Of a DNA stretch of 64,000 bases, positions 15,001 through 18,000 are shown piece after piece. The position numbers are program-made. The stretch lies in assembly GCF_055900595.2 (NCBI RefSeq), contig NZ_CM148325.1; one strand, written 5' to 3'. Positions within the stretch are counted from its first letter, which is position 1. Each line of letters begins with the position of its first letter.

Positions 15001-18000
15001 AAGCAACAAAAACCGACACACATGCAATAATCATTCAATAAAAAGCCTCATGCACTTTTGATTCATTAAAAAATAGGGCTAAAATAGAATGAATCATCAA
15101 TCCGCATAAGAAAATCCTATGGAAAATTATCTGATCGACAATCTGGACCGTGGCATCCTGGAAGCATTAATGGGCAATGCGCGCACCGCTTACGCCGAAC
15201 TGGCGAAACAATTTGGCGTCAGTCCGGGGACAATTCACGTTCGAGTAGAGAAAATGAAGCAGGCGGGGATCATTACCGGGGCACGTATTGATGTCAGCCC
15301 GAAGCAGCTCGGTTATGACGTAGGCTGCTTTATCGGCATTATATTAAAGAGCGCCAAAGACTATCCTTCCGCGCTGGCAAAGCTGGAAAGCCTCGATGAA
15401 GTCACTGAAGCCTATTACACAACTGGCCACTACAGCATCTTTATCAAAGTGATGTGCCGTTCGATCGATGCTCTCCAGCATGTACTTATCAACAAGATCC
15501 AAACAATTGATGAAATTCAGTCCACCGAGACATTGATCGTCCTGCAGAACCCGATCATGCGTACCATCAAGCCCTGATCGGCTTTTTTAATCCCATACTT
15601 TTCCACAGGTAGATCCCAACGCGTTCACAGCGTACAATACGCCACTCTTAATAAAGGTGGCGGTTTATGGCAGATATCACTCTTATCAGCGGCAGCACCC
15701 TCGGCGGTGCCGAATATGTAGCAGAACACCTGGCTGAAAAGCTGGAAGAGGCGGGTTTTACCACCGAAACGCTGCACGGTCCGCTGTTGGAAGATTTATC
15801 TGCCTCTGGGATCTGGCTGGTTATCAGCTCAACCCACGGTGCCGGAGATATTCCGGACAACCTTTCTCCTTTCTATGAAGCATTGCAGGAACAGAAGCCC
15901 GATCTTTCTGCGGTCCGCTTTGGCGCAATCGGTATTGGTAGTCGTGAATATGACACCTTTTGTGGGGCTATCGATAAACTCAAGGCAGAACTCAAAAATT
16001 CCGGTGCAAAACAGACAGGCGAAACACTGAAGATCAACATCCTTGATCACGAAATTCCGGAAGATCCGGCAGAAGAATGGCTGGGATCGTGGATTAATTT
16101 ACTCAAATAAGTATACAGATCGTGCGATCTACTGTGGATAACTCTGTCAGGAAGCTTGGATCAACCGGTAGTTATCCAAAGAACAACGGTTGTTCAGTTT
16201 TTGAGTTGTGTATAACCCCTCATTCTGATCCCAGCTTATACGGTCCAGGATCACCGATCATTCACAGTTAATGATCCTTTCCAGGTTGTTGATCTTAAAA
16301 GCCGGATCCTTGTTATCCACAGGGAAGTGCGATCCTAATAAGAGATCACAATAGAACAGATCTCTAAATAAATAGATCTTCTTTTTAATACCCAGGATCC
16401 CAGGTCTTTCTCAAGCCGACAAAGTTGAGTAGAATCCACGGCCCGGGCTTCAATCCATTTTCATACCGCGTTATGCGAGGCAATCACCATGTTTTATCCG
16501 GATCCTTTTGACGTCATCATCATTGGCGGGGGTCATGCAGGCACCGAGGCCGCGATGGCCGCGGCGCGTATGGGTCAACAGACTCTGCTTTTGACACACA
16601 ATATCGACACGCTGGGGCAGATGAGCTGCAACCCGGCGATCGGCGGTATTGGGAAGGGACATCTGGTAAAAGAAGTGGATGCACTCGGCGGTCTGATGGC
16701 GAAAGCGATCGATCAGGCGGGTATCCAGTTTAGGATACTAAACGCAAGCAAGGGACCGGCAGTTCGCGCTACCCGAGCTCAGGCGGATCGTGTGCTCTAC
16801 CGTCAGGCAGTACGTACGGCGCTGGAGAATCAACCGAATCTGATGATCTTCCAGCAGGCGGTTGAAGATCTTATTGTCGAAAATGATCGCGTGGTCGGTG
16901 CTGTTACCCAAATGGGACTGAAGTTCCGTGCCAAAGCCGTCGTGCTCACCGTTGGGACGTTCCTCGACGGTAAAATTCATATCGGTCTGGATAACTACAG
17001 CGGTGGCCGTGCTGGTGATCCGCCGTCCATTCCGCTCTCTCGCCGTTTGCGTGAACTGCCGCTGCGCGTTGGTCGTCTGAAAACCGGGACACCGCCGCGT
17101 ATTGATGCGCGTACTATCGACTTCAGCGTGCTGGCGCAACAGCATGGCGATAACCCAATGCCGGTATTCTCGTTTATGGGCAATGCGTCCCAGCATCCAC
17201 AGCAGGTGCCGTGTTATATCACTCATACCAACGAGAAAACCCATGATGTGATCCGCAGTAACCTCGATCGTAGCCCAATGTACGCAGGGGTGATCGAAGG
17301 TGTCGGCCCACGCTACTGTCCGTCGATCGAAGACAAAGTCATGCGCTTCGCCGACAGAAATCAGCATCAGATCTTCCTTGAACCGGAAGGGCTGACCTCT
17401 AACGAAATTTATCCGAACGGTATCTCCACCAGCCTGCCGTTCGATGTGCAGATGCAAATCGTCCGCTCCATGCAGGGGATGGAAAACGCGAAGATCGTGC
17501 GTCCGGGATATGCCATTGAGTATGACTTCTTCGATCCACGCGACCTGAAACCGACGCTGGAGAGCAAGTTTATCCAGGGGCTGTTCTTTGCTGGTCAGAT
17601 TAACGGCACTACCGGTTATGAAGAAGCCGCTGCGCAAGGTTTGTTGGCCGGTCTTAACGCTGCCCGTCTGTCTGCTGACAAAGAAGGTTGGGCTCCGGCG
17701 CGTTCTCAGGCGTATCTCGGCGTACTGGTTGATGACCTGTGCACTTTAGGAACCAAAGAACCGTATCGTATGTTTACCTCGCGCGCAGAATATCGTCTGA
17801 TGCTGCGCGAAGATAATGCGGATCTGCGTTTGACTGAAATTGGTCGTGAACTGGGCCTGGTGGATGACGAACGTTGGGCGCGCTTTAACGAGAAACTTGA
17901 GAATATCGAGCGTGAGCGTCAGCGTCTGAAATCGACCTGGGTAACCCCGTCGGCGGAAGCTGCAGCCGAAGTGAATGCTCACCTGACTGCGCCGCTTTCC

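Follow-up and report, generated by a model that had tools for sequence, protein, structure and literature searches.

The window analyzed here, i.e., the whole stretch of 64,000 nucleotides, almost certainly carries a functional oriC, the chromosomal replication origin of an Escherichia coli strain, located at 16133-16393 and at its canonical place between mioC and mnmG (gidA); none of the data speak against this reading. Aligned over its whole length, the window corresponds to positions 3,942,121..3,883,730 of E. coli K-12 MG1655 in reverse complement, which bears out the reverse orientation relative to the K-12 reference described in the initial annotation. The spacer between mioC and mnmG (16111-16488, 378 bp) aligns with K-12 3925634-3926011 with no gap and two substitutions, at 16325 and 16188, which leave all DnaA boxes, 13-mers, and GATC sites untouched. 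Its identity to K-12 reaches 99.5%, versus 97.7% for the flanking genes. From this identity to a functionally defined origin, we infer that the oriC is intact. An intact oriC had already been called at 16130-16400 by the initial annotation, and the R boxes, the 13-mers, and the GATC clusters are all found there. Exact alignment to the reference oriC of K-12, which had been proposed as a check, revealed no lost or rearranged DnaA box, 13-mer, or GATC site. The finding is right but ordinary, as it is already textbook knowledge.

Genomic Context and Limits of the Origin

The 801 bp surrounding the origin (15900-16700) have a match in 5,424 of the 5,426 complete E. coli genomes; all of these matches are chromosomal, with mioC and mnmG as the annotated genes. 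Both flanking genes are intact in the window (Table 1), and no difference with K-12 is seen in the mioC promoter region (15578-15666, 100% identity). The limits of the minimal origin are those given in PMC4585315, i.e., the left side of 13-mer L and the right side of the DnaA box R4. In the K-12 MG1655 record (NC_000913.3), the RefSeq oriC feature covers 3925744..3925975, whereas the minimal 245-bp origin reaches R4 at 3925989. The RefSeq feature hence ends before R4 and maps onto 16147-16378 of the window only; the interval 16130-16400 describes oriC better than this feature does. With oriC identified, the window can be placed on the E. coli chromosome; the importance of this call beyond annotation is small.

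Table 1. Coordinates of the features of the window, with their resemblance to E. coli K-12
Feature	Position	Strand	Remarks
rrsC (16S rRNA gene), first 314 nt	1..314	-	3 mismatches/314 nt relative to K-12 rrsC
mioC	15667..16110	+	intact 147-aa ORF, 4 aa differences from K-12; transcription toward oriC
Minimal oriC (245-246 bp, L 13-mer to box R4)	16133..16378	- (K-12 orientation)	gapless K-12 alignment; 11 GATC sites
DnaA box R4, TTATCCACA, high affinity	16133..16141	-	identical to K-12
C1, right-half low-affinity array	16145-16153	-	identical to K-12
I3, right-half low-affinity array	16156-16164	-	identical to K-12
C2, right-half low-affinity array	16167-16175	-	identical to K-12
Classical R3, overlapping C2/C3	16172-16180	-	identical to K-12
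C3, right-half low-affinity array	16178-16186	-	4 mismatches to consensus; identical to K-12
Fis consensus match, GAACAACSGTTGTTC, palindromic	16181..16195	.	matches GNNYANNNNNTRNNC (PMC4585315)
DnaA box R2, TTATACACA	16207..16215	-	identical to K-12
Low-affinity box I2, CTGATCCCA	16225-16233	+	2-bp spacing; 4 mismatches to consensus; identical to K-12
Low-affinity box I1, TTATACGGT	16236-16244	+	2-bp spacing; 3 mismatches to consensus; identical to K-12
Low-affinity box tau2	16247-16255	+	2-bp spacing rule; identical to K-12
DnaA box R5M, TCATTCACA	16258..16266	+	identical to K-12
IHF-binding core, GATCAACAACCTG, between R1 and R5M	16282..16294	-	relaxed-consensus match; identical to K-12
DnaA box R1, TTATCCACA, high affinity	16313..16321	+	perfect consensus match; identical to K-12
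13-mer R, GATCTCTTATTAG	16335..16347	-	identical to K-12
13-mer M, GATCTGTTCTATT	16350..16362	-	identical to K-12
13-mer L, GATCTATTTATTT	16366..16378	-	identical to K-12
AT cluster flanking the L 13-mer, GGGTATTAAAAAGAA on the - strand	16379..16393	-	identical to K-12 3925729-3925743
mnmG (gidA)	16489..18378	+	intact 629-aa ORF, 2 aa differences from K-12; transcribed away from oriC
lpf-O113-type fimbrial operon	30283-35705		glmS-pstS spacer; site occupied in 1,940 other complete genomes; allele at least 99% identical in 11
Low-GC effector island	40378-47819		replaces bglGFBH-yieLK-cbrBC; occupied in 1,088 other complete genomes; allele at least 99% identical in 13
ShET2/EspL2-family gene, split	56913-59539		between tnaC and mnmE; occupied in 765 other complete genomes; allele at least 99% identical in 15
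rpmH-dnaA intergenic region, dnaA promoters	63395..64000	+	7 mismatches/606 bp relative to K-12

Architecture of the oriC

The duplex-unwinding element comprises three AT-rich 13-mers (consensus GATCTnTTnTTTT) and the AT cluster that flanks them, and the region thus delimited (16335-16393) contains 72.9% of A+T. The high-affinity boxes are oriented on the + strand for R1 and on the - strand for R2 and R4. The initial annotation had counted four DnaA R boxes. All of them are present, but this number belongs to an older description of the origin; the current model comprises 11-12 DnaA sites, in which R3 overlaps C2/C3 (PMC4585315, PMC5716108). We placed the low-affinity boxes according to the published rule of a 2-bp spacing in two arrays (PMC6070618, PMC6158602), and both arrays, R5M-tau2-I1-I2 and C1-I3-C2-C3, are present with this spacing. 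The number of mismatches to the consensus in I1, I2, and C3 agrees with the values given in PMC4585315. That the boxes were placed by a spacing rule does not affect the conclusion, because the sequence is identical to that of K-12.

The sites of the two architectural proteins, i.e., the IHF site between R1 and R5M and the Fis site between R2 and C3, are both present. The IHF core is located where PMC5716108 and PMC10325909 place it. No exact copy of the strict IHF consensus WATCAANNNNTTR occurs in the spacer, nor does one occur in K-12, which is identical there. We rejected the view that this missing match could be a defect, since the K-12 sequence is the same in that stretch.

Each step of initiation has been established for K-12 (PMC5716108, PMC5742627, PMC6070618, PMC10325909), and we transpose them here on the basis of the sequence identity. 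The high-affinity boxes R1, R2, and R4 would be occupied by DnaA, and the two low-affinity arrays, which are oppositely oriented (R5M-tau2-I1-I2 and C1-I3-C2-C3), would be filled cooperatively by ATP-DnaA, while IHF would bend the DNA between R1 and R5M. The AT-rich L, M, and R 13-mers would then unwind, the left DnaA subcomplex holding the T-rich strand, and the loading of DnaB both ways would lead to bidirectional replication. Across the window, replication is thereby expected to proceed leftward below ~16.2 kb and rightward above. After initiation, the 11 GATC sites, as Dam targets, would be sequestered by SeqA.

GATC Sites, DnaA Boxes, and GC Skew around the Origin

Three properties of the composition of the window single out the same region. 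First, the densest GATC cluster of the window is found at 16130-16400, where we counted 12 GATC sites versus 1.31 expected from the window-wide density (Poisson P ~1.6e-8). Restricted to the minimal origin (16133-16378), this number is 11 and equals the published one (PMC5742627). Second, exact matches to the DnaA-box consensus TTATNCACA are grouped at oriC: three of the eight present in the window are located within 189 bp there, while ~2.5 are expected per 64 kb. Third, the GC skew keeps a negative sign up to ~16 kb and turns positive beyond, with a cumulative minimum in the 14001-18000 bin. The GC-skew analysis that had been suggested as a check was performed over the 64-kb window only, and, on this scale, the sign change at 14-18 kb falls at the origin.

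The second-densest GATC cluster of the window (~63640-63910) is found in the dnaA promoter. A DnaA box (63783-63791) lies in the rpmH-dnaA region together with 10 GATC sites, the tenth of which is created by a change of AAG to TCA relative to K-12 at 63777-63779, i.e., 4 bp from the DnaA box and between the dnaA promoters. This allele is common to 435 of 5,423 complete genomes, those of O157:H7 among them.

The Two Substitutions of the oriC Spacer

The two differences with K-12 are expected to be neutral. We regard them as such because they follow the pattern seen in a survey of 59 E. coli strains, in which changes fall in spacers: as reported there, oriC variation is mostly found in spacers and the binding sites are conserved (PMC4585315). 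The substitution at 16188 (K-12 3925934, A>C) occupies the central N of the Fis consensus. We considered whether it could hit C3 or R3 and rejected this, since it is located 2 bp outside C3, at that degenerate position. The 81-mer carrying this allele is found in 749 of 5,423 genomes.

The substitution at 16325 is far rarer and is the one mildly unusual trait of this origin. It corresponds to K-12 3925797 and is a G>T change in the K-12 orientation (A on the + strand of the window), located 3 bp from R1 within the 13-bp spacer that separates the 13-mer R from R1. No more than 10 of 5,422 complete E. coli genomes contain the exact 81-mer around this position, the other 5,412 differing at one position at least. 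This allele is real and inherited in viable strains, because eight independent assemblies, whose isolates came from dogs and humans, show 100% identity over the 801 bp, the 16325 allele included.

Could this change alter the behavior of oriC in its lineage, the lower local G+C easing or re-timing the unwinding? The great rarity of the allele (10 of 5,422 for the exact 81-mer) could be read in this way, as could its position within the stretch connecting the unwinding element with the DnaA oligomer; moreover, an in vitro evolution study reports that oriC can become more active when the GC content of its unwinding element is reduced (PMC12342881). On the other hand, 16325 is outside every defined binding site and the gapless alignment shows that the spacing is unchanged. 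Natural strains even tolerate a 1-nt deletion in this very spacer (PMC4585315); this deletion between the R 13-mer and R1 was described in two strains of the 59-strain survey (PMC4585315). The rarity itself fits a lineage marker, since private alleles of the three accessory islands described below are found in these 10-15 genomes as well. We therefore consider an effect of this allele on oriC behavior very improbable, and it is just as doubtful that G>T naturally tunes the unwinding of the origin or the timing of initiation instead of being a neutral marker. The substitution at 16325 is probably neutral, and we regard it as a marker of the lineage. It could at most be taken up in a small experimental study of the natural variation of oriC.

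Accessory Segments and Soundness of the Assembly

According to the initial annotation, the core is fully syntenic apart from three accessory inserts. The collinearity and the three segments are confirmed, but only two of these segments are insertions. In the middle one (40378-47819), 7.4 kb stand in place of 9.4 kb of K-12 (bglGFBH-yieLK-cbrBC); it is therefore not an insertion, and a difference of ~84 bp between pstA and pstB has to be added. Indeed, the pstA-pstB spacer (~38777-38784) is devoid of ~84 bp that are found in K-12 (3908467-3908550), which may be a repetitive extragenic element present in K-12 only.

Such segments could mark mis-joins, i.e., the origin block could have been wrongly joined and the assembly be an artefact or a chimera. 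The atypical G+C of the three non-K-12 segments (down to 31%) and the end of the window at a suspiciously exact gene boundary would be compatible with this. Yet the three segments are found at the same chromosomal sites in 1,940, 1,088, and 765 other complete genomes, and independent assemblies are 99.95-100% identical across the junctions. As for the exact boundary, it is explained by the rotation of the record to dnaA. The probability of a mis-assembled origin block is, in our view, so low as to be negligible. We rejected mis-assembly at the accessory segments in particular, since hundreds to thousands of complete genomes have these sites occupied as well. The argument of the initial annotation that synteny speaks against mis-assembly is thus upheld, by the occupied sites as well as by the near-identical independent assemblies. 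The three accessory segments do exist and correspond to accessory islands already known in E. coli, and the assembly is sound around oriC. Across these segments, most of the other matching genomes show only 80-96% identity, a divergence that places the strain in a sparsely sampled lineage.

The first segment (30283-35705) is a chaperone-usher operon encoding a major subunit, a chaperone, an usher, and a fourth subunit of 357 aa. Its allele shows only 82-84% identity to the common lpf-O113 operon of E. coli. The fourth gene is intact in the window and frameshifted in the related genome NZ_CM128605.1.

The middle segment (40378-47819) has a GC content of 31-34%. It encodes two paralogous proteins of 839 aa (40797-43316, + strand) and 815 aa (45226-47673, + strand), which share 33% identity, and a 395-aa pentapeptide-repeat protein (43786-44973, - strand). 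The 815-aa protein (45226-47673) has no Pfam match. In related genomes, the genes of this island bear the labels type III effector or EspY4. Of the 5,426 genomes, 1,088 have the site occupied; apart from the 13 with an allele at least 99% identical, most of these show 80-90% identity to the island of the window.

The third segment carries a gene of the ShET2/EspL2 family of type III effectors, split into ORFs of 492 aa (57205-58683) and 221 aa (58725-59390). This gene, included in 56913-59539, is probably a pseudogene; it is annotated as frameshifted in a close relative too. The adjacent stretch from yieH to tnaC (47820-56912) shows 94.4% identity to K-12 with 37 gap openings, compared with ~97.5% for the rest of the core, and may be a recombined or a faster-diverging stretch.

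Ends of the Window

The initial annotation stated that the window ends exactly before dnaA and begins inside the 16S rRNA gene. Both coordinates are correct: position 1 corresponds to K-12 3942121, i.e., nucleotide 314 of rrsC, and position 64000 corresponds to K-12 3883730, one base ahead of the dnaA GTG. The boundary, however, is a matter of bookkeeping and not of biology. The record NZ_CM128605.1 terminates at the identical base and shows 99.95% identity across its final 39.9 kb. Because a record that is 99.95% identical ends at the same base, the end of the window is a linearization artefact. The source record has evidently been rotated to begin at the dnaA GTG, and the window represents its final 64 kb. 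We therefore rejected any biological meaning of the exact end at dnaA, which coincides with the end of the NZ_CM128605.1 record; the end point of the window reflects how the record was linearized.

Comparison with Known Origins

The natural oriC variants described by Frimodt-Moller et al. 2015 (PMC4585315) resemble the origin of the window: the binding sites show conservation, spacers or degenerate positions take up the changes, and inter-site distances are kept. They differ on one point, since the main text of the survey mentions no substitution of the 16325 type between R1 and the R 13-mer. Compared with the oriC of K-12 MG1655, the flanking genes mioC and mnmG, the length, and the spacing of every element are alike, with full identity in all DnaA boxes, in the 13-mers and the AT cluster, in the IHF core, and at the 11 GATC sites. 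The two origins differ by the two substitutions (16325 and 16188) and by the reversed orientation of the record. A further likeness is found with a small lineage to which belong NZ_CM128605.1 (E200086, human stool, Mali), NZ_CP098223.1 (dog), and six more complete genomes, all of which are 100% identical to the window over 801 bp and carry both substitutions. Over 39.9 kb, NZ_CM128605.1 differs from the window by 15 mismatches and 2 gaps, while it is 99.95% identical to it and carries the same three islands.
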